Shown piece after piece: positions 1 through 18,499 of a stretch of 18,748 bases of DNA (the first letter of the stretch is position 1; the number at the start of each line of letters is the position of its first letter). The translations under genes were made by a program, and so were the position numbers. Below the pieces are notes generated by a model. It had not been told where the DNA came from and searched no databases. It saw only the letters and a program-made list of their open reading frames with translations. The stretch comes from Nitrospirae bacterium GWB2_47_37. Its GTDB lineage: Bacteria; Nitrospirota; Thermodesulfovibrionia; Thermodesulfovibrionales; Dissulfurispiraceae. Location: NCBI GenBank assembly GCA_001803635.1, contig MHDU01000011.1, forward strand, positions 1 through 18,748. Reading direction: 5' to 3'.

Positions 1-2
1 TG

Positions 3-1568
3 ACCACCCTCGATGTCCTCGCCATAGGATTATTGGCAATAGCCTTGTTCGAGGCGATTTTGAGCATAACGAGGACATATGTCTTTACCCACACTACAAG
101 TAAGATAGACGTAACATTGGGAACAAGGCTGTTCAAGCACCTGCTTGCACTGCCTCTCAGATACTTCGAGGTGCGAAGGGTAGGAGATACGGTAGCGAGG
201 GTAAGAGAGCTTGAGAACATAAGGCACTTCCTTACGGGAGCGCCGCTTACATCAGTGCTAGCTGTAATGTTCATGGTCATATTCATAGCTGTAATGTTCT
301 TTTACAGCACGGTATTAACTCTCGTAGCATTGGCCGCGCTGCCCTTTTTCGCGGGGCTTTCGGCCCTTATAACTCCAATGCTCAGGCACAGGCTCGACGA
401 GAGATTCAACAGGGGAGCGGATGCACAATCATATCTTGTGGAGGCGGTTACAGGAATGCAGACCGTAAAATCTTTTGCGCTCGAACCCGAGTTGCAGAAG
501 AAATGGGAAGGGCTTCTGTCAGGATATATCAGGTCGAGCTTTAAGACATATCAGTTGTCCGGAATTGCCGGGGCATTGGGACAATTCATAAACAGGGCGT
601 CTTATTTAGTCATCTTATGGGTAGGAGCGCATCTCGTGATAGACGGTAGTTTGAGCGTAGGCCAGCTTATAGCCTTTCAGATGCTTTCGGCAAGGGTGAT
701 AGAGCCGGTGCTCAGGCTTGTGCAGATGTGGCAGGAATTTCAGCAGACAGGGCTTTCGATAAAGAGGCTCGGAGATATATTCAACACAAAGCCCGAGCCT
801 GCAATGAATCCTACAAAGGCGAGACTTCCCGCGATAAAAGGGAACGTGCGGCTTGAAGGCGTGCGTTTCAGATACCGTGTTGACGGCTCCGAGATTTTGA
901 GAAACATGTCGTTCGATATAGATCCCGGAATGACTATAGGCATTATGGGAAGGAGCGGTTCGGGGAAAAGCACAGTTGCAAAGCTTATCCAAAGGCTTTA
1001 CATTCCCGAATCGGGAAGGATACTCATAGACGGCATAGACATATCTCTCGCGGACCCCGCTTGGCTCAGAAGGCAGATAGGCGTCGTGCTTCAGGAGAAT
1101 TTTCTTTTCAACGGAAGCGTGAGGGACAATATAGCGATACATTATCCGTCCGCAAGCGTGGCGGATATTATCAGGGTCGCCCAGTTGGCAGGGGCGCACG
1201 ATTTTATCCTCGAACTGCCCGAAGGATACGACACTATGGTCGGGGAGAAAGGCGCAGCGCTCTCAGGCGGGCAGAGGCAGAGAGTAGCGATAGCGAGGGC
1301 GCTTCTTACTAATCCGAGGCTTTTGATATTCGATGAGGCAACGTCGGCTCTCGATTACGAATCCGAAAGTATTATACAGAGGAACATGAAAAAGATGTGT
1401 CATGGAAGGACAGTGATAATAATAGCGCACAGGCTTTCTACATTGAGGAATGCGGATAAGATAATGGTGATAGACAAGGGAGAGCTTATAGAATCGGGCA
1501 GTCATGAGGAATTGATGGGCAAGAATGGGTTATATCAGTATATGTATAACAAACAGGCTAACGGCTAA
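3..1568 (+). CDS. Type I secretion / bacteriocin-type ABC exporter (HlyB family), fused permease and ATPase; 5' end lies outside the window
   Basis: The frame is open from the window edge with no start codon. The N-terminal half is hydrophobic TMD. The NBD shows Walker A GRSGSGKST, ABC signature LSGGQRQR, Walker B LLIFDEATSALD and H-loop IIIAHRLS. An HlyD-type gene follows 12 nt downstream. Confidence 0.85.
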   Translation, partial: TTLDVLAIGLLAIALFEAILSITRTYVFTHTTSKIDVTLGTRLFKHLLALPLRYFEVRRVGDTVARVRELENIRHFLTGAPLTSVLAVMFMVIFIAVMFFYSTVLTLVALAALPFFAGLSALITPMLRHRLDERFNRGADAQSYLVEAVTGMQTVKSFALEPELQKKWEGLLSGYIRSSFKTYQLSGIAGALGQFINRASYLVILWVGAHLVIDGSLSVGQLIAFQMLSARVIEPVLRLVQMWQEFQQTGLSIKRLGDIFNTKPEPAMNPTKARLPAIKGNVRLEGVRFRYRVDGSEILRNMSFDIDPGMTIGIMGRSGSGKSTVAKLIQRLYIPESGRILIDGIDISLADPAWLRRQIGVVLQENFLFNGSVRDNIAIHYPSASVADIIRVAQLAGAHDFILELPEGYDTMVGEKGAALSGGQRQRVAIARALLTNPRLLIFDEATSALDYESESIIQRNMKKMCHGRTVIIIAHRLSTLRNADKIMVIDKGELIESGSHEELMGKNGLYQYMYNKQANG

Positions 1569-1580
1569 AGGTAAACGGCA

Positions 1581-2933
1581 ATGATTAAACGAGTGAAGGA
1601 TTATTTTAAGGGCGACAATCTTGAATACGAGTTCCTGCCTCCGGCGCTCGAGATAGAGGAGACGCCGCCTTCTCCCGCTCGAAGGGTGTTGATATGGGCG
1701 ATATTTGCGATGGTCATTTTGACTTTTTTGTGGTCGTATTTCGGCAAGGTGGATGAGGTCGCCGTGGCGCGCGGAAAGGTCATTCCCGACGGAAGAGTAA
1801 AAGTAATTCAACCGATGGAAACGGGAGTCATAAGGGCTATTCATGTGGAAGAAGGGCAGAGGGTAAAAGAGGGGCAGATACTTATAGAACTCGACCCTAC
1901 CATAAAGCAGGCCGATGCGTTGAGCGCCGCAAAGGCGTTGTCCATTTATACGATGGACAGAGAGAGGCTTATTCAGGAACTTAACGGCAACACGACAGGC
2001 GATAGGCAAGAGGCTATAGGCAATGGGCGAAAGACAAAAGGCATCGGCGCATTGCAGGCAAAACTTAAAGAGGCGAGGGAATCCGAGTATAAGGCAAAAG
2101 AAGACGCCTTAAGGCTTGTAGCGGCGCAGAGAGAAAACGCCCTGCATGCGGCGGGGGCGATTTTAACGAAGCTCGAAAAGACATTCGCGATACTCAAAGA
2201 ACAGGAAACGGCATACAAAGATCTCTACAAGCATGAATACATCTCGAAGATGGATATGCTTAACAAGCAGATGGAATTTCATTCGGCGGAGCAGGAGCGT
2301 GAAGCGCAGAAGAAACTGGTAAGTCAGGCTAAAGACAGCCTCGAAGAAGCAAAGAAAAATTTAGACGCCCTTAAAAAGGAAAGGGAGAAGGGAATACTTA
2401 CGGACATAGTGGACAGGGAAAAGAGCATCAGCGCCATAGAAGGAGAGGCGATAAAGGCAAAGAAGAAATACGAACTCGAAAGGCTTTGCTCTCCTGTTGA
2501 CGGCACTGTTCACGGACTTGCCTCATACACTGTGGGAGGAGTGGTAACTCCTGCCCAACCCTTGGTCACGGTAGTGCCTGAAGGGACGCCTCTTATAATA
2601 GAAGCGACGGCATTAAATAAAGACATAGGATTTTTAAAAGTCGGGCAGGAGGCGGAGGTAAAGTTAGATACATTTCCGTTTCAGAAGTACGGCACCGTAA
2701 AAGGTAAGGTAACGGCCATAAGCCCGGATGCCTTCGAGGATGAAAAGTTAGGTCCCGTGTATAAGATAAAGGTAACTATCGAAAAATTGAAGATCTATGC
2801 GGACGACAGGTATATACCCGTAGCGCCCGGAATGAGCGTGTCGGTAGAAGTGAAGACAAATAAAAGGCGGATAATAGAGTTTTTCCTTTCGCCTATCGTC
2901 AAATACGCGAAGGAAAGCCTGACTTTGAGGTAA
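1581..2933 (+). CDS. HlyD-family type I secretion membrane fusion (periplasmic adaptor) protein
   Basis: 450 aa with a single N-terminal TM (VLIWAIFAMVILTFLWSYF), a long K/E/A-rich coiled-coil and a C-terminal beta domain ending RRIIEFFLSPI. This is the typical HlyD layout and position after the ABC gene. Confidence 0.8.
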   Translation: MIKRVKDYFKGDNLEYEFLPPALEIEETPPSPARRVLIWAIFAMVILTFLWSYFGKVDEVAVARGKVIPDGRVKVIQPMETGVIRAIHVEEGQRVKEGQILIELDPTIKQADALSAAKALSIYTMDRERLIQELNGNTTGDRQEAIGNGRKTKGIGALQAKLKEARESEYKAKEDALRLVAAQRENALHAAGAILTKLEKTFAILKEQETAYKDLYKHEYISKMDMLNKQMEFHSAEQEREAQKKLVSQAKDSLEEAKKNLDALKKEREKGILTDIVDREKSISAIEGEAIKAKKKYELERLCSPVDGTVHGLASYTVGGVVTPAQPLVTVVPEGTPLIIEATALNKDIGFLKVGQEAEVKLDTFPFQKYGTVKGKVTAISPDAFEDEKLGPVYKIKVTIEKLKIYADDRYIPVAPGMSVSVEVKTNKRRIIEFFLSPIVKYAKESLTLR

Positions 2934-3087
2934 AAACGGCAGGCTTAGGGCGAGAGCGATAGGTAATGACGGATTTAAATTGGCAGCTTAGGACTAATGT
3001 CTAAAAGTGAGTCTGACCTTAAGCGGATGATAACTAAGGAGTATAAAATCGAAGATATAATAAAACCGAAAGGGAGGCCGAAGAAAG

Positions 3088-3327
3088 ATGAAGACAAGAA
3101 TAAATAGAACCGTCCCGTTTTTTGTATCGAGGAGTATTCTCTCCCCCAGGGAGAAAGAGATTTTGGAGCGCATGAGAGACGGCAAAACCGACCTCGAAAT
3201 ATCCGCCATTTATACCATCAGCGAATACACTGTAAAGTTTCATATAAAGCATATCCTGCGTAAACTGCAAGCTTCAAATAGGACACACGCCGTAGGCATC
3301 GCCATGCAGAAACGCTTGCTCGATTAA
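3088..3327 (+). CDS. Solo LuxR/GerE-type helix-turn-helix transcriptional regulator (79 aa, HTH domain only)
   Basis: LSPREKEILERMRDGKTDLEISAIYTISEYTVKFHIKHILRKLQASNRTHAV matches the LuxR C-terminal HTH pattern. RBS GGGAGG lies at 3072-3077. No receiver or ligand domain is present. Confidence 0.7.
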   Translation: MKTRINRTVPFFVSRSILSPREKEILERMRDGKTDLEISAIYTISEYTVKFHIKHILRKLQASNRTHAVGIAMQKRLLD

Positions 3328-3362
3328 TTGACATCGAATCTACCCCCTACTCAAATGAGTAG
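3328..3362 (+). promoter_or_regulatory. Sigma70-like promoter candidate overlapped by a 16-bp inverted repeat
   Basis: Perfect -35 TTGACA at 3328-3333, a 17-nt spacer, then TCAAAT at 3351-3356. The palindrome CTACTCA-AA-TGAGTAG at 3347-3362 overlaps the -10. It could instead be the luxR terminator hairpin, but no T-run follows. Confidence 0.3.
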
Positions 3363-3709
3363 CTTACATTGGGGAAGGGGAATGTGGTATATAAAGGCCT
3401 GCATGTCTTGCAGCCGAACTTATAGGGAAGGTATGAACGAATTCAGTACGGCGTAAAAGAGTAAAAGATTGTGGAAATTACTGCTCAACAGAAATGCAAA
3501 AATTCCTGGAAGACTATTCCGACAGATTGCCTCGACTGTCAATGTCCGCTCCGAGCCGATTGCAGAGGAGGATGCACAGCTGCATCAGATGAGGTATATG
3601 GTTCACAATATCGGATTGATCCAATCTGTGAGTTATCTTGTTAAAAAAATTAGGTTGGTTTTTCAACGATAAGGAAAGAGCATGCCTTATTGAGATCGAA
3701 TAACGTGAG

Positions 3710-3726
3710 GCAAGATATAATCTTGC
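3710..3726 (+). promoter_or_regulatory. Perfect -10 box (TATAAT, 3716-3721) embedded in inverted repeat GCAAGAT-ATA-ATCTTGC, 30 nt upstream of the cassette start
   Basis: Read directly from the sequence. The nearest -35-like element, TTGAGA at 3690-3695, has a long 20-nt spacer, so promoter strength is uncertain. The inverted repeat could be an operator. Confidence 0.3.
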
Positions 3727-3751
3727 AGATTACTCTAAGTGGGAGGATTGT

Positions 3752-4303
3752 ATGCCTGACATGAAAGATTTTTTAAATCCGAAATCGATGTTAACGCCCG
3801 GCATTGCAGGCGGATTAACAGCCAGTGTTTCTTTAACATTGGCATCTGCATTTGCAATAAGCTTCAAATGGTCGGCACTTGGCATCAGTTTTTTGCTGGG
3901 GTTGCTTATAATGATTTCCATGCGGAACTCTATTCCCTTATTGCAGCGATTTATATATTGCATCCTAAATTCGCTGATTGTTTTTTCTATGGCGTTCGGC
4001 GCCGGTAAGGGCATTGATTCGCAGCCTCAGCTCGATCCTAAGATTATTGACAAAATTGTGAATACGCAATTATCAGTAGTTGAGCCTCAACCCCCTTCGG
4101 TTTTAGCGTTATCCAATGCATATGCGCAACAATATCCCATTAAATCAGATAAGCCTAAAAAAAGCACTGCTCCTTCCGGAACCGACAAAAAAGGGACAGG
4201 CAGCAATGAATCAAAGGAAAATAATCTGACCAAGAAAGAGATGGAACAGTTAAAAACGTATATTCAACAACAACAGAATTATGATAAGCGATGGTCGTGG
4301 TAA
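3752..4303 (+). CDS. Hypothetical small membrane protein (about 3 TM helices, with a hydrophilic P/K/Q-rich C-terminal tail)
   Basis: RBS GGGAGG at 3741-3746. Hydrophobic segments are GIAGGLTASVSLTLASAFAI, ALGISFLLGLLIMI and FIYCILNSLIVFSMAFGAG. I recognise no family. It is the first gene of the AT-rich cassette. Confidence 0.55.
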   Translation: MPDMKDFLNPKSMLTPGIAGGLTASVSLTLASAFAISFKWSALGISFLLGLLIMISMRNSIPLLQRFIYCILNSLIVFSMAFGAGKGIDSQPQLDPKIIDKIVNTQLSVVEPQPPSVLALSNAYAQQYPIKSDKPKKSTAPSGTDKKGTGSNESKENNLTKKEMEQLKTYIQQQQNYDKRWSW

Positions 4304-4345
4304 GAGAAAAGTGAAATTTTAAGAACAGAAAATGGGGAGGAGAAA

Positions 4346-5152
4346 ATGTGTAAAGATAAGTCAGTGAGTCATTTAAACGAGTTAGGATGGAATGTGGTAA
4401 GATTACCTAAAGAAAATATTAATCCGCTTTTAACTCTTTCCAAATCCAATAGCTATCTTGAAACTTTAGGAGAAATCTCTGATTTCGTGATAGAAGATCA
4501 ACCCAAGCCCCCAGAAATTGTCCAAGACCAATCAGTAGCAGAAATTTCAGGTTTGGAGACTGACAAATTTGAATTGGGAATAGGACTAAAGTTTTTAGAA
4601 AAATTCCTATCTTTAGTGGGAGTAGCGGGATTAGGATTAGAAGCAAGCTTTAAGAATGCAGAATCCATTCAATTTGCCTATCAGAATGTACTGACAGATT
4701 TTGTCTATCCAGTGAAGATTGGAAAGTACTTATTGAGTGTCAGTCCTGATGTCAGTAGCCCCTTTATGGAGCATATTAATGAAGAGGGAGAGGCTTATAT
4801 TATTACAGACACGCTTAGATCTAACACATTCGGTATTGTTGCCTATGATGAAAAAGGTGTAAAAATTGATTTGGATATTTCTGCATTAAAGCAACTTCTT
4901 AGCGCTACTCCACATATTGAAGTATCTAAAGATGAGAAGAAAGTTGTTTCTTTTAAGGGGGATAAATTTCTGCGTTTTGCCTTTAAGGCAATCGGCGTAT
5001 GGGTGGAGATACGGGACGGCAAAGCGAGATTTAAACTGAATAAGCCGGAAGGACCCATTGCACCAATGAAGGCTTTACCGTCCACTTTAATTAGTCCCAA
5101 TGAACCAACACCTGTAATTTTCGGTATGAACACCCTAATCAGACTAAAATGA
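4346..5152 (+). CDS. Bacterial gasdermin-like pore-forming protein (bGSDM-like), 268 aa
   Basis: RBS GGGGAGG at 4334-4340. Cys is at residue 2. N-terminal LNELGWNVVRLPKENINPLLTL..LETLGEISDF, central AEISGLETDKFELGIGLKFLEKFLSLVGVAGLGLEASFKNAESIQFAYQNVLTDFV and later EAYIITDTLRSNTFGIVA follow the conserved pattern I recall for bacterial gasdermins. The length is typical (240-300 aa). The similarity is recalled, not computed. Confidence 0.7.
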   Translation: MCKDKSVSHLNELGWNVVRLPKENINPLLTLSKSNSYLETLGEISDFVIEDQPKPPEIVQDQSVAEISGLETDKFELGIGLKFLEKFLSLVGVAGLGLEASFKNAESIQFAYQNVLTDFVYPVKIGKYLLSVSPDVSSPFMEHINEEGEAYIITDTLRSNTFGIVAYDEKGVKIDLDISALKQLLSATPHIEVSKDEKKVVSFKGDKFLRFAFKAIGVWVEIRDGKARFKLNKPEGPIAPMKALPSTLISPNEPTPVIFGMNTLIRLK

Positions 5153-5180
5153 ATCATAATAACTAAAAAGGAGATAAAAC

Positions 5181-6248
5181 ATGTCGAATCAAGAATCGAT
5201 CAACAGAGGTCTTGACAGGGCATATAATGAGTTGAAACCTGAAGATACGATAAAATGCGATATAGAGTCTGTGCGTATCGTTATCTTTTCAGATCATCAC
5301 AGGGGAGTTCGCGATGGAGCTGACGACTTCCAGCGGTGTGAAGGGGCATATTGTGCCGCACTCGGATATTATTTAGAGAGAGGTTATAACCTCATAGTTC
5401 TCGGCGATGCAGAAGAATTGTGGGAGTGTAGGCCCGCCCCTGTAATTAGAGCTTATGAAAACACATTGAAGCTTGAGGCAGAATTTTATAAGAATAGGGA
5501 AGACCGCTACTGCCGTATTTATGGAAATCACGATGATTACTGGAGGGATACGGGTAGTATTAATATAGGTGGGGAACAAATAACGGCAAGGGATAAGCTG
5601 ATGATAAGCCTGCATGATAAAAACAATAAATCTATTGGGGACATTTTTTTTGTTCATGGTCATCAAGGGACTTTTGAAAGCGACCGCTTTGGGAAGATCA
5701 GCAGGTTTTTTGTAAGAAACCTCTGGAGACCCTTTCAGAGGATTACTCATATAAAGTTGACTACACCTGCCAAGGATGCAGAATTGCGCGGCGAACACGA
5801 TACGGCAATGTATAATTGGGCTTTAAATAAGAATAATGGGCAAAAAAAGCTTTTGCTGATTGCAGGCCATACGCATTTGCCGGTATTCGCATCAAAAGAT
5901 CATATAGGAAAGATTAGCGATGAGCTTAAATCTCTTCAGCAGCAGCTTGATAATGCGAGGACATCCGGCGATCCCCATGTTGACGGCATTGCAGAACAGA
6001 CAGCGGAAAAACGGGCTGAGCTTGAATATCGAAAGGCGCAAAAGAATATGAAAGAGGATCAGAAAGGCATTTTTATGGAGAAGCCATGCTATTTTAATTC
6101 CGGCTGTTGTTCATTCAGCGATGGAGATATAACAGGATTGGAGATTGCTGACGGAAAAATAAAGCTTGTTAAGTGGCCCAAAGATAATCCGAGAGTAGAA
6201 GTTCTTGAGGATGCCGACTTGAGAAGCGATATTTTTGGAAGCTTATAG
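5181..6248 (+). CDS. Calcineurin-like metallophosphoesterase (LpxH-like arrangement) with a C-terminal extension
   Basis: The ordered metallophosphoesterase motifs are FSDHHRG, LGDAEELWE, YGNHDDYW, VHGHQG and AGHTHLP. RBS AAGGAG precedes the ATG. Confidence 0.8.
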   Translation: MSNQESINRGLDRAYNELKPEDTIKCDIESVRIVIFSDHHRGVRDGADDFQRCEGAYCAALGYYLERGYNLIVLGDAEELWECRPAPVIRAYENTLKLEAEFYKNREDRYCRIYGNHDDYWRDTGSINIGGEQITARDKLMISLHDKNNKSIGDIFFVHGHQGTFESDRFGKISRFFVRNLWRPFQRITHIKLTTPAKDAELRGEHDTAMYNWALNKNNGQKKLLLIAGHTHLPVFASKDHIGKISDELKSLQQQLDNARTSGDPHVDGIAEQTAEKRAELEYRKAQKNMKEDQKGIFMEKPCYFNSGCCSFSDGDITGLEIADGKIKLVKWPKDNPRVEVLEDADLRSDIFGSL

Positions 6249-6299
6249 CATTGCTGTACCTTAAGTTTTTTAAGATGACGTTTGTGAAAGGAGACGGCA

Positions 6300-6875
6300 A
6301 TGATTTACGAATACGAGATAGACGGCTTGACGGTGCGGACAGGCGATATCATCTGCACTTCTGACGGCGCTGCGGATACCGATATCAAAGGCCAGTTCTG
6401 GCGGCTGCTGGGGAAAATAATACCCGGCGAGGTCGATCACATTATTATTTATGTAGGACCAAACGGTCGTTGCGTAGAAGCGGGAGCAAAAGGCAGGGTG
6501 ATAACCTTTGAGATTATGGATACTACATGGGATTTTCAGAAGATGATTGCAAAAAGGGGAATAATAGATACCCTGTATGGAGCAGCATATCCGCTTCAGG
6601 GGAAGAGTCTGAGCGAAACGGAGATAACAGGAATACGGGAAGCGGTTGCCGCGTATTGCCTGAGGCAGGCTGAATTGGAGAAGCCGTATAATATGAATTT
6701 CCTTGATTCAACCACCGAAGATGCATACTACTGCAGCCAGCTCGCTTACCTTGCATATTTCAAACACGGCATCGACCTGAATACCGGCAAGGGAATACCC
6801 GAAATACCAGGGACTGAGCGCATAATCTTCCCGCAGGAGATATGGAGCGGGTGCGGGCATAAAAAAGCGCGGTAA
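6300..6875 (+). CDS. Permuted papain-fold cysteine peptidase/amidase, YiiX / peptidase C92 (DUF830)-like
   Basis: GDIICTSDG near the N-terminus, HIIIYVG....VEAGAKG in the middle and a late YYCSQLAYLAYFKHGIDL (catalytic Cys motif). This order is typical of the circularly permuted NlpC/P60-like YiiX family. RBS AAGGAG. Confidence 0.6.
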   Translation: MIYEYEIDGLTVRTGDIICTSDGAADTDIKGQFWRLLGKIIPGEVDHIIIYVGPNGRCVEAGAKGRVITFEIMDTTWDFQKMIAKRGIIDTLYGAAYPLQGKSLSETEITGIREAVAAYCLRQAELEKPYNMNFLDSTTEDAYYCSQLAYLAYFKHGIDLNTGKGIPEIPGTERIIFPQEIWSGCGHKKAR

Positions 6876-6888
6876 ACAAGTTTCGCTC

Positions 6889-6918
6889 TTGCCAAAATCC
6901 ATGCTTATTTTGTAGAAT
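6889..6918 (+). promoter_or_regulatory. Sigma70-like promoter candidate for rpmE
   Basis: TTGCCA at 6889-6894, an 18-nt spacer, then TAGAAT at 6913-6918, about 35 nt upstream of the rpmE start. Confidence 0.35.
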
Positions 6919-6953
6919 AAGAGTCTAAATTTTTATTTTCAGGAGGGTTTGCG

Positions 6954-7154
6954 TTGAAAGAGGGAATACATCCGAAATATAAAGAGGTAAAGGTCGCCTG
7001 CGCCTGCGGAGAGACTTTTACCACGAAGTCCACAATGGACAATATAAAGCTCGATATCTGCTCCAAGTGCCACCCGTTCTTCACCGGCAAGCAGAAGATA
7101 TTGGATGCCGAGGGAAGGGTAGAAAAGTTCAAAAAGAAATACGCTAAGAAGTAG
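6954..7154 (+). CDS. rpmE: 50S ribosomal protein L31 (zinc-binding type)
   Basis: [27 protein letters not shown]...[13 protein letters not shown] is the canonical L31 sequence with a CxC...CxxC pattern. TTG start with RBS AGGAGGG. Confidence 0.9.
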
Positions 7155-7170
7155 CGAATAAACATATCGG

Positions 7171-7210
7171 GGTTAGAGCGCGGGGTCGTTTGCGCTCTAA
7201 CCTTTTTTTT
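7171..7210 (+). terminator. Rho-independent terminator after rpmE
   Basis: An 11-bp perfect stem, GGTTAGAGCGC (7171-7181) with GCGCTCTAACC (7192-7202), a 10-nt loop, then T8 at 7203-7210. Confidence 0.85.
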
Positions 7211-7223
7211 ATTAAGGAGATAT

Positions 7224-8114
7224 ATGCATAAGATAGGCGGACAGGCCGTAATAGAAGGCGTTATGATGAAATCTCCCGAAGGCTGGAGCGTGGCCGTAAG
7301 GGGCCCGAAGGGCGACATCAGCTTTAAAACTGTAGTAACGAAAAAACCGAACAGGTTTTTCAGGCTGCCCTTTGTAAGAGGCGTGGCTGCCCTTATTCAG
7401 GCGCTTTCCATCGGCGTTAAGGCTATCGAATTTTCGGGAAATATCGCGTATCAGGAAGACGAGAAACCTATAGGCACGCTCGGCATGGGACTGACCATCG
7501 GTTTCGCGATTATTTTAGCCATAGCCCTTTTCAAGTTCCTTCCGCTTTTTCTCACGACTTTAATCGGAGGCGTTTCTGAAGGCGTTTCAAAAAGCTCCTT
7601 TATGTTCAACTTTATCGACGGGACGATTAGGGTGGGAATATTTCTTTTCTACATATTCGCCATCGGGCTCTGGAAAGAGATGAGGAGGATATATCAGTAT
7701 CACGGTGCGGAGCATAAGGTTATTTACGCTTATGAAGCCGGGGAGGAACTCACGGTCGAAAACGCGAAGAAATATAAGCCGTATCATCCGAGGTGCGGAA
7801 CCAGCTTTTTGCTGATAGTGATGGTTATCAGCATGCTCGTATTCATGTCGATCCCGCAGGGCTGGTCTTTTTCCGGAAAGCTGATGTCAAGGATTGTCCT
7901 GTTGCCTGTGATAGCGGGCATTTCTTACGAGACGCTGAGGCTTTCGGCGAGAATGAAGGATAATCCGGTCGTAGGGCTGATCGTCCTTCCCGGACTTTTG
8001 CTCCAGAGGATGACCGTGCGGGAGCCGGACGACACGCAAATAGAGGTGGCGCTGGCGGCAATGAACGAAGTCCTGAAATTAGGCGCGGATAAAGAGGTTT
8101 GCAAACAGTGTTAA
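7224..8114 (+). CDS. DUF1385 (YqhQ-like) membrane protein, commonly linked to prfA/prmC
   Basis: The N-terminal [23 protein letters not shown] and the later YHGAEHKVI and HPRCGTSF motifs are characteristic of DUF1385. Its position between rpmE and prfA is the usual one. Confidence 0.75.
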
Positions 8115-9169
8115 AAAAGCTGCTTACGATAGAAGAAAAATACGAAGAGATAACCAATTCGCTCGTAAATCCGGATGTGTTATCGAATCCCCAATTGTAT
8201 CAGAAATACTCGAAGGAGCAGTCGGATCTTTTTCCCATTGTCGAGAAGATAAAGGAGTATAAGAAGCTTCTTGCCGACCTCGAAGGTGCGGAGGAACTGC
8301 TTAAGGCCGGAGACGGCGATTTAAGGGATCTTGCTCAGGAAGAGATGGAGGAGCTTAAAAAGAGGAAGCCCGTTGTGGAAGACGAATTGAAAATAATGCT
8401 CCTCCCCAAAGATCCGAGGGATGGAAAGAACGTAATCCTCGAAATACGGGCGGGAACAGGGGGCGAAGAGGCCGCCTTGTTCGGCGCGGCCCTTTTCAGG
8501 ATGTATTCGAAATACTCCGAATCTAAAAGATGGAAAATAGATATTATAGATTCAAGCCCGACGGGACTCGGAGGCTTAAAGGAAGTTACGGCTAATATTA
8601 CGGGCAAAGGCGCTTACAGCAGGCTTAAATACGAAAGCGGCGTTCACAGGGTGCAGCGGGTTCCCACGACCGAGGCGTCCGGAAGGATACATACCTCGGC
8701 GGCAACTGTAGCCGTGCTGCCCGAGGCCGAAGAAGTGGACATTAAAATAGAGGAGAAGGATTTGAGGATAGATACCTTCTGCTCTTCGGGCGCAGGCGGG
8801 CAGAGCGTTAATACGACATATTCCGCCGTAAGGATAACTCATATCCCTACAGGGCTTGTCGTTCAGTGTCAGGATGAGCGCTCCCAGTTGAAAAACCGCG
8901 AGAAGGCCATGAAGGTGTTACGTTCGAGGCTTCTGGAACTCGAAATAGAAAAGAAGGAAAAAGAGCGTGCCGCCGACAGGAAGACGCAGGTCGGAAGCGG
9001 GGACAGGAGCGAGAGGATAAGGACTTATAATTATCCGCAGAACCGTATATCCGACCACAGGATAGGGCTTACGCTTCATAAGCTCGAACAGGCACTTGAA
9101 GGGAATCTCGATGAGCTTATCGACGCCTTGATAACCCATTATCAGGCGGAGAGGCTTAAGGAATTGTAA
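8108..9169 (+). CDS. prfA: Peptide chain release factor 1
   Basis: GGQ motif [13 protein letters not shown]1-type tripeptide region [17 protein letters not shown], and full-length similarity to RF1. The ORF track starts at TTG 8099. GTG 8108 is better spaced from AAAGAGG (8091-8097). It overlaps the DUF1385 stop. Confidence 0.9.
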
Positions 9170-9233
9170 AAATCGTCAATACGGGATCGAATTCTGCTAT
9201 AATATTTACAAAACAGAAAGGGGCGGTACGCAC

Positions 9234-9620
9234 ATAGACAGCAGGACTAAGGCATTAGAGGCGGCGCAGGCAGCGCTCGATAAAAAGGCAAAAGAGACGG
9301 TAATCCTCGAACTGAAAGACCTTACGATAATCGCGGATTATTTCGTTATCTGTTCCGGCGAAAGCACTACGCAGGTCAAGGCAATCGTCGAAAACATAGA
9401 GAAGATATTAAGAGAGCACAAGCAAAGGCCATTAGGGATCGAGGGGCTGAGGTCCGCCGGATGGGTCTTGATGGATTACGGGGATGTGATAGTCCACGTG
9501 TTCGAAGAAGATACGAGGGCGTATTACGAGCTTGAGAAATTCTGGCTGGACGCCCCGAAAATAGCGGTAGAAGACAAGTCCGCTAAGAAGGCCGCGGGAA
9601 GCAAAAAGCAGTATGTATGA
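9234..9620 (+). CDS. rsfS: Ribosomal silencing factor RsfS (iojap family); start codon uncertain and non-canonical
   Basis: This ORF is absent from the ORF track. The frame translates to ...TKALEAAQAALDKKAKETVILELKDLTIIADYFVICSGESTTQVKAIVENIEKILREHKQRPLGIEGLRSAGWVLMDYGDVIVHVFEEDTRAYYELEKFWLDAP, the RsfS pattern. The stop TGA at 9618-9620 overlaps the rlmH ATG. There is no in-frame ATG, GTG or TTG between the prfA stop and the conserved core. ATA 9234 follows RBS AAAGGGG (9217-9223). Confidence 0.7.
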   Translation: MDSRTKALEAAQAALDKKAKETVILELKDLTIIADYFVICSGESTTQVKAIVENIEKILREHKQRPLGIEGLRSAGWVLMDYGDVIVHVFEEDTRAYYELEKFWLDAPKIAVEDKSAKKAAGSKKQYV

Positions 9621-10054
9621 AGGCGCGGATATTATGGGTCGGAAGAACGAAGGAAAAATATTTGACGGAAGGGATTAACCGTTACCTGAAAATGTTAAAG
9701 CATATGGCGAATGTTTCCGTCATAGAGGTGAAGGAAGAGAAGGGCAAGACGAAGGAGAACGCCCTTTTTGCGGAGGGAGAGCGTATATTGCGCCAAACAG
9801 CGTCTTATATCCTGCTCGATGAGACCGGGAAGGAATTCAGTTCTAAGGATTTCGCGAAGTTTCTCGGCGAAAGGGATCAGGTCGATTTTGTGATGGGAGG
9901 CGCGTACGGGGTTTCCTCTGAAGTTAAGGCAAAGGCAACGGGTAAAATAGCGCTCTCGAAAATGACCTTTACCCATGAGATGGCAAGGCTGATATTTTTG
10001 GAGCAGTTTTACCGCGCGATGACAATCGTCAAAGGCAAGGAGTATCATCACTGA
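9617..10054 (+). CDS. rlmH: 23S rRNA (pseudouridine1915-N3)-methyltransferase, SPOUT family
   Basis: About 145 aa. It starts MKARILWVGRTKEKYL and ends GGAYGVS...LSKMTFTHEMARLIFLEQFYRA, the typical RlmH N- and C-terminal patterns. It sits directly after rsfS, as in many bacteria. Confidence 0.8.
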   Translation: MKARILWVGRTKEKYLTEGINRYLKMLKHMANVSVIEVKEEKGKTKENALFAEGERILRQTASYILLDETGKEFSSKDFAKFLGERDQVDFVMGGAYGVSSEVKAKATGKIALSKMTFTHEMARLIFLEQFYRAMTIVKGKEYHH

Positions 10055-11367
10055 TGGGCAAGATAGCGATACTTGTATTTTTGTTGTTCCTCGGAGTCCT
10101 CGGTTTTTTTGCGGTCGAGAACAAAGACGCCGTGATCATGAAAATTCCCTTCGGCGACGCTTATGAGATCCCGAAGATAGCGCTTGTTCTCCTTTCCTCC
10201 ACCATAGGCGCGCTTGCCGTCCTTATCGTGTTTTTTATAAGAGATACGAAACGCGTAATCGAAAATCTCCAGTATCAGAGGAGGCAGAAGAAAGAGGCCA
10301 GGATTCAGGAATTTTATTCCAAGGCGTTGAACGCCATAATGGGCGATAAGGAGGAGGAGGCGCGGGAAGCCCTCGGCGATATATTGAAGGAGGACCCGGA
10401 ATATATAGACGCCCTTTTACGGCTCGGCGACATCTCGCTCAATAACGGAAAATATGAAACCGCGTTCGATTATTACAAAAAGGTGAAGGACATAAACCCG
10501 AAGAATCTACAGGTGCTTTTTTCCATGGAAACAGTGATGGAAAAGCTGCAGAGATACAACGACGCGTTTAATTACCTCGAAGAGATACTCGATCTCGATC
10601 CCGAAAATCTTACCGGGCTCTACAAGAAGCGCTCTCTCCTCGAAAGGAAAGAGATGTGGGACGACCTCCTTTCCACGCAGAAGGCGATAATCAAGCTCGA
10701 ACATAACGAGCACGACAGGCAGCGGGAAGAGCGCAGGATGCTCGGTTATAAATATGAATACGCCCGCGCGAGCCTTGAAAACGGAGATGTTGAAAAGGCG
10801 GAAAAGGCGTTCAGGACAATGCTCAAGATGGACGGTAATTTTGTCCCGGCGCACCTCGGTCTTGCGGAAGTCATACTTATGAAAGGAGAGACCGAGGAGG
10901 CGATAAACTTTCTCGAAAAGGCGTACGAGCAGCTCAGGTCGATAATAATAATCGCTCGCCTTGAAGACCTTCTCATCAACGTAGGAGAACCGGGCAGGCT
11001 TATAAGATTCTATAAAAACGCCATAGCTAAAAATCCTCAGGACAACGGGCTGAGATTTCTCCTCGGCAAGCTCTACTACAGGCTTGAAATGGTCGATGAC
11101 GCCATGGAGATGCTGAATTCAATCGATACCACGGTCTTTTCGGTGCCCGAGCTGTATAGTTTGAAGGGAGAGTTATATATAAAGAGGAGCCAGATACAGA
11201 AGGCGCTGGACGAACTTAAAAAGGCATGCGGCATAAAAAGGCCGTTTAAGATCCAATACTGCTGCTCAAACTGCGGTTTAAAATCCGAAGACTGGTCGGG
11301 AAGGTGTCCCGGATGCACGGAGTGGAATACCTACAGGCTCGACGTTTATGGCTCCTGCAAAGCGTAA
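10054..11367 (+). CDS. lapB: LapB/YciM-like protein: N-terminal TM anchor, TPR repeats, C-terminal rubredoxin-like zinc site
   Basis: N-terminal TM helices, multiple TPR-like repeats (ALNAIMGDKEEEAREAL..., YETAFDYYKKV...), and a C-terminal CCSNCG...RCPGCTEWNTY (CxxC...CxxC) as in LapB. The ATG overlaps the rlmH stop (TGATG). Confidence 0.6.
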   Translation: MGKIAILVFLLFLGVLGFFAVENKDAVIMKIPFGDAYEIPKIALVLLSSTIGALAVLIVFFIRDTKRVIENLQYQRRQKKEARIQEFYSKALNAIMGDKEEEAREALGDILKEDPEYIDALLRLGDISLNNGKYETAFDYYKKVKDINPKNLQVLFSMETVMEKLQRYNDAFNYLEEILDLDPENLTGLYKKRSLLERKEMWDDLLSTQKAIIKLEHNEHDRQREERRMLGYKYEYARASLENGDVEKAEKAFRTMLKMDGNFVPAHLGLAEVILMKGETEEAINFLEKAYEQLRSIIIIARLEDLLINVGEPGRLIRFYKNAIAKNPQDNGLRFLLGKLYYRLEMVDDAMEMLNSIDTTVFSVPELYSLKGELYIKRSQIQKALDELKKACGIKRPFKIQYCCSNCGLKSEDWSGRCPGCTEWNTYRLDVYGSCKA

Positions 11368-12058
11368 AGACAGCGATGAGTTATCAGTGATGAGTGATGA
11401 GTTAAAAAACAAAAAAAAATCAAAGACGAAAAGTAAAAGCTCAAAAGCAAGCACATCACCGTCGTTAAAAGTCGTACTCGATACGAGCCTTTTCGTAAAT
11501 CCGGACGTCAGGACAAGCCTCGGAGCAACCCCCACAGAGGCTTTGGAAACATTCCTTTTTCTGGCGGCGCAGATACATATACTCGAATTCTACATGCCTC
11601 CGTCGATATTCGAAGAACTCCTGCATTTTGTGGAGAGGGACAAGATACCGGCCGATCTCCTTCTTATCTTGCATCAGAAACCGCCTAAAAAACATGAACT
11701 CACGACTCCCGCCTTTCTCTTATACGAATTGATTGAGGACATAAGGGAAAGGGTGAACAAGGGGCTGCGGATAGCAGAAAAGGCCGTAAGGAGTACAGAT
11801 CAAAAAAAGACGGATGAAATCGTTCAGGATATGAGAAGAAAGTACAGGGACGCGCTTAGAGAAGGGATCATCGACAGCAAGGAAGACGTCGATCTCCTGC
11901 TGCTCGCCATGGAACTTGACGCCCTGCTTATCACGGCCGATCAGGGGCTGATAAAGTGGGCCGAAAAATTAGGTGTAAGATGGCTGTTCCCGGAGAAATT
12001 CAAGGAATATTTAATGAGCGCGATAAAAAGAACCGAACTTCTTTCCGCAAAAGAATAA
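11348..12058 (+). CDS. PIN-like HARP family protein (homolog of Aquifex protein-only RNase P) with a Lys/Ser-rich N-terminal extension
   Basis: The core is VVLDTSLFVNPDVR...FYMPPSIFEEL...NKGLRIAEKAV...RRKYRDALREGIIDSKEDVDLLLLAMELDALLITADQGLIKWAEKLG. It closely follows the Aq_880/HARP pattern as I recall it. Residues 1-40 are K/S-rich. An alternative start is the ATG at 11390. Confidence 0.65.
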   Translation: MAPAKRKDSDELSVMSDELKNKKKSKTKSKSSKASTSPSLKVVLDTSLFVNPDVRTSLGATPTEALETFLFLAAQIHILEFYMPPSIFEELLHFVERDKIPADLLLILHQKPPKKHELTTPAFLLYELIEDIRERVNKGLRIAEKAVRSTDQKKTDEIVQDMRRKYRDALREGIIDSKEDVDLLLLAMELDALLITADQGLIKWAEKLGVRWLFPEKFKEYLMSAIKRTELLSAKE

Positions 12059-12076
12059 AGTGTAGAAACAATGTAG

Positions 12077-14302
<2,226 letters not shown>

Positions 14303-14304
14303 CT

Positions 14305-14449
14305 GAAAATTTTTTTAATGTCCTAACCCACAATGAAGGTGTCATTATCGACTGTAGTTTTAGTTTGGCTTAGGCTGGACAAACCCAAGCGTACATTCCT
14401 TCATCATATAGGCGTTTTACAATTAAGGCTCTTTTTGATTTTCGCAAAC
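14305..14449 (-). ncRNA. tracrRNA candidate (model 1): anti-repeat at 14449-14417 followed by about 110 nt of hairpin scaffold running toward the cas9 stop
   Basis: Plus strand 14417-14434 reads TTACAATTAAGGCTCTTT, the reverse complement of repeat segment AAAGAGCCTTAACTGTAA with 17/18 matches. Weaker inverted similarity continues to 14449. The one difference is a G-U wobble only for minus-strand RNAs. Hairpins at 14368-14390 and 14330-14348 also gain G-U pairs only on the minus strand. The ends and the strand are inferred, and no clear promoter or terminator was found. Confidence 0.5.
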
Positions 14450-14538
14450 CCCCTGGGGTTTATTTCAAAAGATGGCTTTTAGAAAATTATTGAAAATTTT
14501 CTCTGAAAACTTCTTGAAAATACTAAGCTATAAGGACG

Positions 14539-14645
14539 GTTTCAATCATCATTTTCAAAGAGCCTTAACTGTAATGTGCTGCCGTCCTGTGAGAGGGCTA
14601 TCTGCGGTAGTTTCAATCATCATTTTCAAAGAGCCTTAACTGTAA
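14539..14645. CRISPR. Minimal CRISPR array: two identical 36-nt repeats and one 35-nt spacer
   Basis: GTTTCAATCATCATTTTCAAAGAGCCTTAACTGTAA occurs at 14539-14574 and again at 14610-14645. The spacer is TGTGCTGCCGTCCTGTGAGAGGGCTATCTGCGGTA (14575-14609). The transcription direction is unresolved; the anti-repeat logic favours minus, while the AT-rich upstream region and the GTTT start favour plus. Confidence 0.85.
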
Positions 14646-14654
14646 CGCTCATAT

Positions 14655-14994
14655 AAGCAAGGTCTGTCCGCCGGAGAGGACGGTGTTTTCTCCATCGGTC
14701 GCGCTACTGAACCAACTGACTGTCAGTTAGACGAAACAATCAGAACAGAGTCCCTGCCGGAAACCGTTTCCGGTCGTCCAGCGAACATTGAGAAAGCTGC
14801 GACGCCAGATGCACCTTCCGGTGGGAAGTCCTCCGCTCAAACGCCTGAAGCGTCTCGCAGCCTTTCTGAAACAAATCAAAAAAGCTGAGACAAGATTCCT
14901 TTAAAATAGAGCATCTCAAAGAAAAGTCCCTGCGAGCAATGCGCTTCTTGAAGGAAGCCCCTCTCTAACGTCCGAAACGCTCAGGGACACTAAA
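14655..14994. ncRNA. GC-rich, densely self-complementary non-coding segment between repeat 2 and a degenerate repeat copy; candidate structured RNA of unknown class
   Basis: No ORF of 60 aa or more on either strand. Helices read by eye are 14664-14683 (6 bp), 14757-14773 (CCGGAAA/TTTCCGG, 7 bp), 14792-14866 (17 Watson-Crick bp in four blocks with an apical CTTCC/GGAAG hairpin) and 14926-14988 (GTCCCTG/CAGGGAC enclosing GCTTC/GAAGC). CTGAGA at 14885-14890 can pair with either TCTCA (14914-14918) or TCTCAG (15000-15005). Confidence 0.4.
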
Positions 14995-15030
14995 ATATAT
15001 CTCAGAATTGTAAAAGAGCCTAAACTATAA
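14995..15030. repeat. Degenerate third copy of the CRISPR repeat (direct orientation), 349 nt from repeat 2 and overlapping the cas1 promoter region; alternative anti-repeat if transcribed from the minus strand
   Basis: ATATATCTCAGAATTGTAAAAGAGCCTAAACTATAA matches the repeat at 25/36 positions by hand alignment. The half at 15013-15030 matches 16/18 and the other half 9/18. TATAAT boxes lie on both strands, at 15026-15031 (+) and 15045-15040 (-). Confidence 0.55.
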
Positions 15031-15081
15031 TATGATTACATTATATGCCTTTAAATTTCAAGAGCTTTAGCGGAGGTGGAT

Positions 15082-16275
15082 ATGCAAAGCAATACTTTTA
15101 AAATTTCACGCATCCATCCTGAATACGTGCCTAAAGAAAAATTGCCTCTTGCCCAATTCAATCTTTTTACAAACGAAGCGGAGAGCATTCCCTTATTGAT
15201 CGACAAAGATGTTGACGACGAGATATTTATCGATGAAGGGATTTCTCTGATAAAAAGCGGCGATTCATCGCAGATAGTGTTATCGGGGTTCGGCATTTTT
15301 TTAAGCAAAAAGAGCGAGCGTCTTATTGTAAAGAAAAACACTAAAGTTGTTTATGAGTTTCCCTTTTTCAGGCTGAACGAAGTCATCATGGCTTCCCGCG
15401 GCATATCGCTGTCGTCGGATCTTATAGAGGAATTGTGCGAGAGGGGTATAAGACTGAATTTTCTGAACAACAACGGCAAGCCGTACGCAATGCTTTCTTC
15501 TCCGATGCTCTCCGCAACCGTCATATCAAGAAGAGAGCAGATTATTGCCTTTACCGATACGCGCGGTCTTCAATTCTCAAAAGCTATTGTGGAGGGCAAA
15601 ATCAGAAATCAAGAAAGACTTTTGAGATATTTCGGCAAATATATTAAAACTGTTGACAGCGCCAGGTTTGACAGAATAGAGGAGATAACAGATGTCATTA
15701 GGAAGATGAGCAGGCAGGTGGAAGGTATTCACGGGCAGAGCATTGAAGATGCAAGAGGCAGACTGATGGCAATTGAAGGCGCTTCAGGTAGGCTATACTG
15801 GGACGGCGTTAAGGAGATAATCGGAAATAGAATAGAGTTTTTCGGGCGGGAAACGCGGGGAGCCATTGATGCCGTAAACTCCCTGCTGAATTACGGCTAT
15901 GGGATTTTATATTCCCACGTCTGGGGCGCCGTTATAAACGCCGGGCTTGAGCCGTTTGCGGGGTTTCTTCATGTGGACAGGCCCGGAAAGCCGTCTCTTG
16001 TTTTGGATTTGGTCGAAGAGTTTCGTCAACCTATTATCGATAGGATTGTAATCGCCCATATTAATCTTGGAGAATCAATCGAAATTAGAAATGGCCTGCT
16101 TGAAGCTGAGACCAGAAAGCTGATAGGGAACAAAATTATTGAAAGGCTGGAGAGTCAGGAAACACTTGACGGCAAAAAATATAAAATTAGGTCGATAATC
16201 CAGATGCAGGCCAGAAATTTAGCGGCCTTTCTGAACGGCAAAAGAGAATACAAAACGTTCAGATTTAAGTGGTAA
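15082..16275 (+). CDS. cas1: CRISPR-associated endonuclease Cas1
   Basis: Canonical C-terminal Cas1 motifs EGASGRLYW, AIDAVNSLLNYGYGILY, GFLHVDRPGKPSLVLDLVEEFR. RBS GGAGG at 15072-15076 favours ATG 15082, although the track starts at GTG 15076. Confidence 0.9.
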   Translation: MQSNTFKISRIHPEYVPKEKLPLAQFNLFTNEAESIPLLIDKDVDDEIFIDEGISLIKSGDSSQIVLSGFGIFLSKKSERLIVKKNTKVVYEFPFFRLNEVIMASRGISLSSDLIEELCERGIRLNFLNNNGKPYAMLSSPMLSATVISRREQIIAFTDTRGLQFSKAIVEGKIRNQERLLRYFGKYIKTVDSARFDRIEEITDVIRKMSRQVEGIHGQSIEDARGRLMAIEGASGRLYWDGVKEIIGNRIEFFGRETRGAIDAVNSLLNYGYGILYSHVWGAVINAGLEPFAGFLHVDRPGKPSLVLDLVEEFRQPIIDRIVIAHINLGESIEIRNGLLEAETRKLIGNKIIERLESQETLDGKKYKIRSIIQMQARNLAAFLNGKREYKTFRFKW

Positions 16276-16278
16276 TTG

Positions 16279-16560
16279 ATGGAAGAACATACAGTCTATA
16301 TTTTTTACGATATAGAAGATGACGGCATACGCAATAAGATTGCGGAGAAGTGTAAAGACTATGGGCTCGAAAGAATACAGTTCAGCGGCTTTTCCGGCAT
16401 TTTAAATAGAAACAAGCGGGAAGAACTATTTCTAAGGCTCATTTCTTTAATTGGCGGCAAATCAGGCAAAATTCTTATGCTTCCCTTATGTGAAAGGGAT
16501 ACGAAGGTAAGAAGGGAGTTTATACAGGAAGGACAAGATGATTCAACTGAGGGTCGGTGA
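16279..16560 (+). CDS. cas2: CRISPR-associated endoribonuclease Cas2
   Basis: About 93 aa. The N-terminal beta strand VYIFYDIEDD carries the conserved Asp, and the ferredoxin-like length is right. It starts 4 nt after the cas1 stop (TTG 16276 or ATG 16279). Confidence 0.8.
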   Translation: MEEHTVYIFYDIEDDGIRNKIAEKCKDYGLERIQFSGFSGILNRNKREELFLRLISLIGGKSGKILMLPLCERDTKVRREFIQEGQDDSTEGR

Positions 16561-17113
16561 TCTCAAGCAGTTCGTATATTGTCCAAGAGTCGTGTTCTAC
16601 AATTATGTGATGCCTGTCGAGAAAGTTCCAACCTTCAAGATGGAGCATGGGAAGATAGCAGAGGATAAAATAGACAGGCTTGAGCACAGAAGAAAACTTA
16701 AAAAGTACGGCTTGTCCGGCGGGGAAAGGGAATTCCACTTGAATTTATATTCTCCGAAATATGAGTTATCAGGCAAGATTGATCTGCTTATCAATACTGT
16801 CGGTTCTTATTATCCGGTTGACTTTAAATATACCACCTCGCAGCCGCATAAAAATCATATCTATCAACTTTTGGGGTATGCCCTAATACTTGAAGACATA
16901 TATAAATGCAAAGTCAATAGGGGATTTGTATATATAATTCCCAAAGAGGATGCAATTTCTTTTGACTTAACGGATGATTTGAAGGGCAAAGCAGAAATTT
17001 TGCTTGATGAGATCAGAGATATGATAGCATTGCAGCAAATGCCTGCCCCTGCAAACTCCAGAAATAAATGTGACGACTGCGAATATAGGAATTTCTGCGG
17101 AGATATTTTTTGA
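16538..17113 (+). CDS. cas4: CRISPR-associated exonuclease Cas4 (RecB-like nuclease with a 4-Cys cluster)
   Basis: N-terminal Cys (FVYCPRVVFY), the nuclease motifs GKIDLL and YPVDFKYT, the QxxxY-like IYQLLGYALIL, and a C-terminal CDDCEYRNFC. It overlaps cas2 by 23 nt. Confidence 0.85.
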   Translation: MIQLRVGDLKQFVYCPRVVFYNYVMPVEKVPTFKMEHGKIAEDKIDRLEHRRKLKKYGLSGGEREFHLNLYSPKYELSGKIDLLINTVGSYYPVDFKYTTSQPHKNHIYQLLGYALILEDIYKCKVNRGFVYIIPKEDAISFDLTDDLKGKAEILLDEIRDMIALQQMPAPANSRNKCDDCEYRNFCGDIF

Positions 17114-17116
17114 CAA

Positions 17117-17980: not shown

Positions 17981-17995
17981 TTTGCCGATTAATGT

Positions 17996-18418: not shown

Positions 18419-18499
18419 ATAAGCTTCCTCCTAACGATAAATGTTTTCAAGCCTGCGGATAATATCGAGTTTTTCTTTCTCTGTTGTTCTCACTCAGGG

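Follow-up and report, generated by a model that had tools for sequence, protein, structure and literature searches.

Where does the activating protease of a bacterial gasdermin come from when no dedicated protease gene stands beside the gasdermin gene? This question was raised by an 18,748-nt stretch of DNA from a groundwater Nitrospirae metagenome-assembled genome (Nitrospirae bacterium GWB2_47_37, contig MHDU01000011.1, positions 1 to 18,748; called the window below), in which an open reading frame (ORF) had been recognized, from its letters alone, as a bacterial gasdermin (bGSDM)-like gene. We found that window positions 4346-5152 almost certainly encode a bacterial gasdermin, a member of the Vitiosangium-like branch, and we consider it probable that the protein has an autoinhibitory tail that is freed by a protease acting in trans.

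The ORF (4346..5152, + strand, ATG start) was present exactly as this sequence-only reading had placed it and encoded 268 amino acids (aa) plus stop. Curated profiles of the bGSDM family matched its product at full length: PADLOC bGSDM (PDLC02986) gave E=7.7e-79 over residues 1-266 of 268, and the NCBIfam equivalog NF051890 (prok_gasdermin), whose cut-off is 100 bits, gave a score of 178.9. Pfam PF26164 (Bact_GSDM) is the precomputed assignment of the protein; a Pfam-A scan returned 0 matches because PF26164 was missing from the scanned copy, and this empty result is not evidence against membership. A single-sequence search of the PDB matched the Vitiosangium structure 7N51 (E=6.1e-41) and its active form 8SL0 (E=1e-40); with a family profile the values were 9e-61 and 1.8e-60, and 7N52 (Runella), 9V2S and 7N50 (Bradyrhizobium) were matched as well. 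An AlphaFold2 (AF2) model built from an 18-sequence alignment (predicted local distance difference test score, pLDDT, 72; predicted template modelling score, pTM, 0.73) was judged to have the gasdermin N-terminal-domain fold (a twisted antiparallel beta-sheet core) in its inactive conformation. Comparison of this model with the PDB by Foldseek, which the sequence-only reading had proposed as a check, placed 7N51 first (E=7.6e-20, TM-score 0.74, root-mean-square deviation 3.1 Å), and all 17 matches with E<1e-3 were gasdermins, from bacteria, mammals and Trichoplax. Profiles, crystal-structure matches and predicted fold thus supported the identification. A chance ORF could be dismissed, since there were 29 homologues at E<=1e-5, all carrying the precomputed PF26164, and since the ratio of nonsynonymous to synonymous substitution (dN/dS) was 0.07-0.5 overall in pairwise comparisons with eight relatives. 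The ORF was intact and identical in 20 of the 20 contigs read, which came from several samples.

The motifs on which the recognition by eye had been based were all read in the translation. The N-terminus contained L10..L13-G14..V17-V18.L20-P21...I25.P27-L28, followed by L41-G42.I44.D46-F47, the Pro-rich stretch QPKPPEI (residues 52-58), ISG (67-69), the hydrophobic G/L-rich segment GIGLKFLEKFLSLVGVAGLGLEASFKNAESIQF (78-110), the later block YIITDTLRSNTFGIVA (151-166) and the C-terminal tail PIAPMKALPSTLISPNEPTPVIFGMNTLIRLK (237-268, 32 residues). A pore-forming core could be delimited to residues 1-232 (4346..5041, + strand), including the hydrophobic segment, from a HMMER alignment to 7N51 over residues 1-234, the AF2 secondary structure and the Foldseek matches. 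The Cys at position 2 (codon 4349..4351, + strand), also present as described, aligned with position 4 of the 7N51 chain. Cys4 of the Vitiosangium bGSDM is palmitoylated, and the Bradyrhizobium counterpart at this self-palmitoylation position is C3; with Cys2 found in at least 90% of 18 aligned family members, this residue is a candidate S-palmitoylation site.

The core was followed by a Pro-rich linker, K233-K242 (KPEGPIAPMK; 5042..5071, + strand), predicted to be a protease-accessible cleavage region from its register with a loop of the Vitiosangium protein. The HMMER alignment to 7N51 stopped at P234, where that loop (P234-M239) starts, and replacement of the Vitiosangium loop by a thrombin site has been used to activate the protein. 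The loop motif KP.GP[IV]APM[KR]A was kept across the clade and in a gasdermin linked to a C14 protease (L020; loci are given here by L numbers), and 16 of the 17 sequences alignable across the loop had a basic residue at 242. Ortho- and metacaspases cut after Arg/Lys, and K/R242 is for both reasons a candidate P1 residue; the Runella CHAT protease cuts after Leu.

Residues 243-268 (5072..5149, + strand; ..EPTPVIFG.NTLI.LK) form the predicted C-terminal autoinhibitory peptide, on the grounds of conservation, dN/dS and analogy with the Vitiosangium bGSDM, whose last 30 residues are inhibitory and whose truncation is toxic. Among the 18 members aligned (30-96% identity), KPEGPIAPM[KR]ALPS.LI.P.EPTPVIFG.NTLI.LK was one of the best-conserved stretches, in which V257, N262 and L264 were nearly invariant. 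In the Vitiosangium protein the Cys pocket is capped by L260. The dN/dS of the tail codons was 0.06-0.6, with most comparisons at 0.06-0.3, and tail and loop are maintained by purifying selection. Table S1 of Johnson et al. gives a predicted gasdermin domain of 240 aa for this protein. Length, position and conservation fitted the earlier proposal of a short autoinhibitory peptide, and the last 30 residues of the model had a pLDDT of 39-51.

The closest solved relative was the bGSDM of Vitiosangium sp. GDMCC 1.1324 (7N51, inactive; 8SL0/9A84, active oligomer/pore), with 31% identity in the structural alignment, a core of equal length, a loop beginning at P234 and a C-terminal peptide of about 30 residues. 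The two differed in the tail, where no HMMER alignment was obtained past residue 234, and in their surroundings, the Vitiosangium gene being adjoined by a CHAT protease gene (Table S1 row 3 of Johnson et al.) and the window gene by none. The Runella zeae bGSDM-CHAT system and the four-gene Lysobacter system, which has two trypsin-like proteases plus an NLR-like ATPase with CARD, share the effector family with the window, and their presumed logic is alike, that of an autoinhibited pore-former freed by C-terminal cleavage. However, these two operons carry protease and sensor genes of their own and have been assayed for toxicity or phage defence, whereas the window gasdermin is solitary and has low similarity to the Runella protein 7N52 (E=0.028, single sequence).

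The gene stood out by its base composition, as had been judged by eye and was upheld by computation. Sliding-window GC was 0.35-0.38 over 4001-5250 against 0.47-0.51 in the housekeeping flanks, and the gasdermin gene (GC 0.375) had a GC content at third codon positions (GC3) of 0.316, the lowest among the window's 20 genes. GC3 was 0.58-0.66 in the housekeeping genes rpmE, DUF1385, prfA, SPOUT and TPR, and 0.52-0.66 in the host-like class overall, which includes ABC, HlyD, LuxR, C92, PIN_5, M28 and PNPOx. A leader with a Shine-Dalgarno sequence (AAAATGGGGAGGAGAAA; 4329..4345, + strand) preceded the start codon and formed the 5′ edge of the DNA common to other gasdermin copies; at the aligned junctions of these copies ..RGAGGAGAAA-ATG was common, and a strong ribosome-binding site (RBS) was kept. 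An Rfam scan of the window gave no match, and promoter-like matches in it were at chance level only.

The gasdermin is already known. An exact-sequence look-up found the identical 268-aa protein as A2077_04710 (GWC2_46_6, assembly GCA_001803605.1) and A2Z82_02795 (GWA2_46_11), and Johnson et al. list it, as Nitrospirae bacterium GWA2_46_11, in row 23 of their Table S1, i.e. among the 50 founding bGSDMs catalogued in 2021/2022, uncharacterised. In row 23 the second gene downstream (+2) is entered as the protease, of "Peptidase C1-like" type, and CRISPR-Cas as lying nearby; the row agrees with the window gene for gene, as a Cas9d-cas1-cas2-cas4 locus lies 7 kb downstream there. The protein is the same, and only the protease assignment is disputed here. 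Orphans made up 7 of the 50 genomic bGSDMs of Johnson et al. (e.g. Aquificaceae Obs5_genome_078, row 31). Their Table S4 lists three relatives of the window gene under 'no protease', namely Ga0187309_10928 (L007), Ga0210030_1000936 (L030) and Ga0210036_1001371 (L026), of which L007 is 86% identical to the window gasdermin and has no protease or defence system nearby. By our own count, the first 92 metagenomic bGSDMs of that table comprised 35 with a protease nearby and 57 (~60%) without, so solitary gasdermins are frequent in it. The window's clade thus includes published orphans; the window copy itself was scored as protease-associated there, and we think that it belongs with the orphans instead.

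No caspase-like, trypsin-like, subtilase or U49 gene was found beside the gasdermin by Pfam, PADLOC and NCBIfam scans. Defence-system finders are built to look for gasdermin systems that include a protease, and the partner that would make up a bGSDM-protease system was missing from the window. Gasdermins of at least 52% identity were examined in about 10 distinct contexts (window, L007, L009, L011 with two copies, L012, L016, L019, the L014/L025-L030 group, L024 and L029), none of which had a clan-CD protease gene beside the gasdermin. More distant relatives, of 27-34% identity, served as a positive control: C14, CHAT or C11 was adjacent in 6 of 7 testable loci (Peptidase_C14 in L015, C11 in L031, CHAT in L034, L036, L037 and L038). 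In L020 a 580-aa Peptidase_C14 gene stands 4 nt before the start of the gasdermin, which is 54% identical and has loop and tail in common with the window protein (KPSGPVAPMRAF...VTPVLFGRNTLVRLR). In a neighbour-joining tree (no bootstrap) L020 was the basal branch of the close clade, with the remaining protease-linked sequences as an outgroup ladder. With protease-linked relatives basal, the orphan state looks derived, and the simplest reading of these sequences is that the orphans remain substrates of a C14-type protease supplied in trans.

By homology with the Vitiosangium, Runella and Bradyrhizobium bGSDMs, the protein would be made as an autoinhibited monomer, probably palmitoylated at Cys2, with its conserved tail bracing the core. 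A cut in the exposed Pro-rich loop K233-K242 would free the tail, after which the core could enter the inner membrane and assemble there into large beta-barrel pores that kill the cell, presumably as abortive-infection defence. Because no dedicated protease is encoded beside the gasdermin, the activating enzyme would most likely be encoded elsewhere: a host clan-CD caspase-like enzyme, proposed since the nearest protease-linked relative is caspase-like, or possibly a phage protease. Given that the protein is a gasdermin, we somewhat favour a protease encoded elsewhere as the trigger; what is left by this and the alternatives below falls to a trigger that is none of those named.

Several points weigh against this reading. 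Activation in trans is an argument by elimination, no experiment on this protein was found in the literature searched, and docking of the tail on the core was not visible in the AF2 model, whose last 30 residues are those of low pLDDT. The published Table S1 names another gene of the window, that of a C92-family hydrolase, as the partner protease; this hydrolase keeps a plausible catalytic pair, His47/Cys145, as read from its sequence, and its gene lies in the same terminator-free string as the gasdermin. Locus L024, whose gasdermin is 96% identical, has a papain-family Peptidase_C1 gene one cassette upstream (962-1873), so papain-fold activators have to be counted among the possible ones. Phage defence has been shown for no orphan bGSDM.

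In blastn comparisons with gasdermin copies 73-97% identical in DNA, homology started at 4329-4336 and ended at 5153-5154, i.e. the DNA common to at least eight unrelated contexts consisted of the ORF with 10-17 nt before the ATG (the RBS) and 1-2 nt past the stop. From these boundaries, the gasdermin spreads between genomes as a bare solitary gene. Since it has the lowest GC3 in the window and since only the bare ORF plus RBS is common to other genomes, it was recently acquired.

In some relatives this unit was bounded by palindromes. Within a few bases of the stop codon, L024, L029, L007, L009 and the L014/L025-L030 group have TTGCCCGCAAC.G.CA..TAAC, the left arm of an imperfect palindrome (~95 nt) whose other end reads GTTA..TG..ATTGCGGGC. 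These attC-like palindromes (L009:7606-7712 and 8874-8975; L007:8811-8916; L024:3144-3250; L029:3143-3250; L014:2349-2450 and 2945-3048) fold as long single-stranded DNA hairpins (z = -7.5 and -9.3 for the L009 element) and recur at the next gene boundary, and a right arm precedes the gasdermin unit. They resemble integron cassettes in that ~95-nt palindromes with inner TAAC/GTTA boxes stand, in five contexts, among small same-strand ORFs and toxin-antitoxin (TA) pairs. They differ from integron attC sites in their boxes, which depart from RYYYAAC/GTTRRRY and are not the outermost ones. No integron integrase scored above the cut-off, and a tyrosine recombinase in L030, cut by an IS91 element, was below it. 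With non-canonical boxes and no integrase, a true integron cassette was not accepted, the evidence being inconclusive to negative. No palindromic element followed the gasdermin stop codon in the window. A gene for a Cys-rich protein of 93-97 aa with a signal-peptide-like N-terminus lay inside the gasdermin's palindrome-bounded unit in L009 (6510-6791), L024 (2033-2326) and L029 (upstream of 2336) only; the protein had no NCBIfam or PHROGs match. The stop codon of this gene overlaps the gasdermin RBS, and the window keeps the last ~17 nt of the junction. For the gasdermin clade there were no PHROGs matches and no phage or viral-contig relatives, and it was not detectably phage-borne. On L007, an Aquificae-like contig, 272-nt direct repeats with 95% identity (7698-7969 and 9076-9347) flank the solitary gasdermin, which suggests a duplication or insertion scar.

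A more far-reaching reading of these results can be put forward only tentatively. The clade of gasdermins at least 52% identical would have left its ancestral caspase-like partner and would spread as a bare ORF plus RBS among Nitrospirae, Deltaproteobacteria and Aquificae-like genomes, in some of them as a cassette bounded by attC-like palindromes, with loop and tail under selection. It would be a self-sufficient single-gene immune 'tripwire' whose direct trigger would be a phage protease, a stress protease or some non-proteolytic cue, and the protease of the published catalogue would be a bystander.

It seemed unlikely to us that such an orphan, having no dedicated cell protease, answers to a phage or stress protease as a tripwire or to a cleavage-independent switch such as redox state, lipid or partner binding. 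The protease linkage was lost in a derived state, yet tail and loop are under purifying selection in about 10 contexts, and a gene that moves as a bare ORF must work on arrival without a partner; the share of metagenomic bGSDMs with no protease nearby in the first part of Table S4 points the same way. Foldseek also placed among the fold neighbours the TrichoGSDM and RCD-1 entries 8JYV and 8JYY, which we take to be cleavage-independent. Cleavage-independent switches have been reported for some eukaryotic gasdermins. However, all characterised bacterial gasdermins are protease-activated, and the loop common with the C14-linked L020 is more simply explained by a C14-type protease in trans.

That the locus is a canonical cis system as published, with C92 as a dedicated protease cleaving the gasdermin tail, we regard as quite improbable. 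The +2 gene named as the protease in Table S1 row 23 is the window gene for C92, a 191-aa C92/YiiX-like permuted NlpC/P60 cysteine hydrolase (Pfam PF05708; 6300..6875, + strand; A2Z82_02805), and the gene between it and the gasdermin is A2Z82_02800, a metallophosphoesterase. The protein belongs to a papain-like fold family, and the His and Cys motifs are present. All these genes lie on the same strand with short gaps, and no + strand terminator occurs between an upstream 183-aa gene and rpmE, the only terminator-like site on the + strand in 2900-7300 being the one after rpmE. Besides the papain-family C1 protease near the L024 gasdermin, Geobacter sp. DSM 2909 (IMG 2756143509-12) has a 'Peptidase C1-like family' gene at +2 in Table S1 (row 22), plus two caspases.

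Against this, C92 had a host-like GC3 of 0.542 vs 0.316 for the gasdermin and ~0.41 for the gasdermin's two flanking genes. The order C92-rpmE-DUF1385-prfA was present, with 86% nucleotide identity and no gasdermin, in L042, which was collinear with the window from 6283 to 9168 and no further. As this collinearity starts at exactly 6283, the variable island ends 17 nt before C92, and the gasdermin island lies directly upstream of a conserved backbone. The C92 family had at least 1375 members conserved across phyla, as opposed to the 29 gasdermin homologues; its top 120 members were all at least 60% identical, and its named sources were Nitrospirae, Thermodesulfobacteriota and Syntrophorhabdales. 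No homologue of C92, nor of the metallophosphoesterase, the 183-aa protein or the LuxR protein of the window, was present at any other gasdermin locus examined, and C92 was unrelated to the C1 protease of L024. Finally, YiiX/NlpC-P60 proteins are annotated as amidases/hydrolases, not endoproteases. From GC3, synteny with L042, family size, absence at the other gasdermin loci and lack of relationship to the L024 protease, we judged C92 to be resident host backbone and not a gasdermin partner.

Hardly credible is a selfish or decaying cargo, i.e. a hitch-hiking cassette, an addiction-like toxin with no role in defence, or a gene becoming a pseudogene: foreign composition, a bare-ORF unit, the lack of a partner gene and the TA cassettes, transposases and attC-like palindromes near relatives would fit it, and against it the ORF is intact and identical in the 20 contigs read, dN/dS is 0.07-0.5 over core and tail, and the strong RBS is kept.

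Upstream of the gasdermin, in the low-GC island, a 183-aa small membrane protein of a family with no name (3752..4303, + strand, GC3 0.418) had no Pfam, PADLOC, NCBIfam or PHROGs match; its family had 576 cluster representatives at E<=1e-3 and was conserved mostly in residues 1-90. As a partner or immunity factor it was rejected, being absent from every non-identical gasdermin locus. The 355-aa metallophosphoesterase (Pfam Metallophos; 5181..6248, + strand, GC3 0.410), 28 nt 3′ of the gasdermin, was rejected as a partner in the same way: it was missing at other gasdermin loci and belongs to a generic family with at least 2623 homologues in many phyla, one of them in a housekeeping context in L044. 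A conserved small partner gene upstream was not found either, since the upstream small ORFs of the relatives were mutually non-homologous and one was the end of an aminotransferase gene. A holin-endolysin-like lysis pair was rejected because the candidate neighbours, M15_4 in L016, Amidase_2 in L029 and C92 in the window, were unrelated and differently placed, C92 was backbone, and there were no PHROGs matches and no phage relatives.

Further upstream, positions 33-3327 encode an ABC exporter, an HlyD-family adaptor and a 79-aa stand-alone LuxR/GerE helix-turn-helix protein. Together they resemble an export module for a peptide or bacteriocin, with no apparent relation to the gasdermin. The window does not reach the C39 peptidase domain at the exporter's N-terminus; in L001 the full-length exporter has 729 aa. 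C39 was rejected as the activator: it is a domain that processes leader peptides (double-glycine type), its operon is a separate one of host GC, and it was not conserved near other gasdermin copies.

The surroundings of the gasdermin have the character of a defence island, with the Cas9d-cas1-cas2-cas4 locus downstream of a low-GC variable island. In the window, 12092-17113 is a compact type II-D CRISPR locus with a 736-aa Cas9d (NCBIfam NF049971, E=1e-153), cas1, cas2 and cas4, and with an array of two identical 36-nt repeats (14539-14574 and 14610-14645) and a degenerate copy (14995-15030). Its GC was low, like that of the gasdermin island, and in the strain variant L003 the Cas9d ORF was broken into pieces of 133 aa and 332 aa. 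Neighbours of the relatives included TA pairs, an nSTAND-TPR protein and transposases. The nSTAND-TPR protein, of >763 aa (L029:3259-5547), combined an N-terminus that by eye resembled a nuclease with an nSTAND NTPase domain and TPR repeats. In L011 (39-11082) a whole module was duplicated in tandem, with two gasdermin copies 6 kb apart; its order was a PDDEXK_9 protein, a 128-aa LTXXQ-like secreted protein, the gasdermin and an autotransporter-like protein. In the housekeeping part of the window, rsfS upstream of the SPOUT methyltransferase gene (9170-9616) was 128 aa in the NCBI record (L005) and 49 aa in metagenome contigs, and no + strand ORF of at least 60 aa was present at this position in the window; the discrepancy may come from a frameshift or from a difference in start-codon calling.

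The gene call itself adds nothing new, and the value of the analysis lies in correction and context. The new points are modest: a likely protease mis-assignment, a derived orphan clade and a cassette-like mobility of the bare ORF; no paper on orphan or cassette-borne bacterial gasdermins was found in the literature searched. The statement that bGSDMs go with proteases is based on 43 'protease-associated' cases, of which one is probably owed to a bystander housekeeping gene. Because its loop and tail are conserved and a 54% identical relative is linked to a C14 protease, the clade is a tractable place for tests of how orphan gasdermins are activated.

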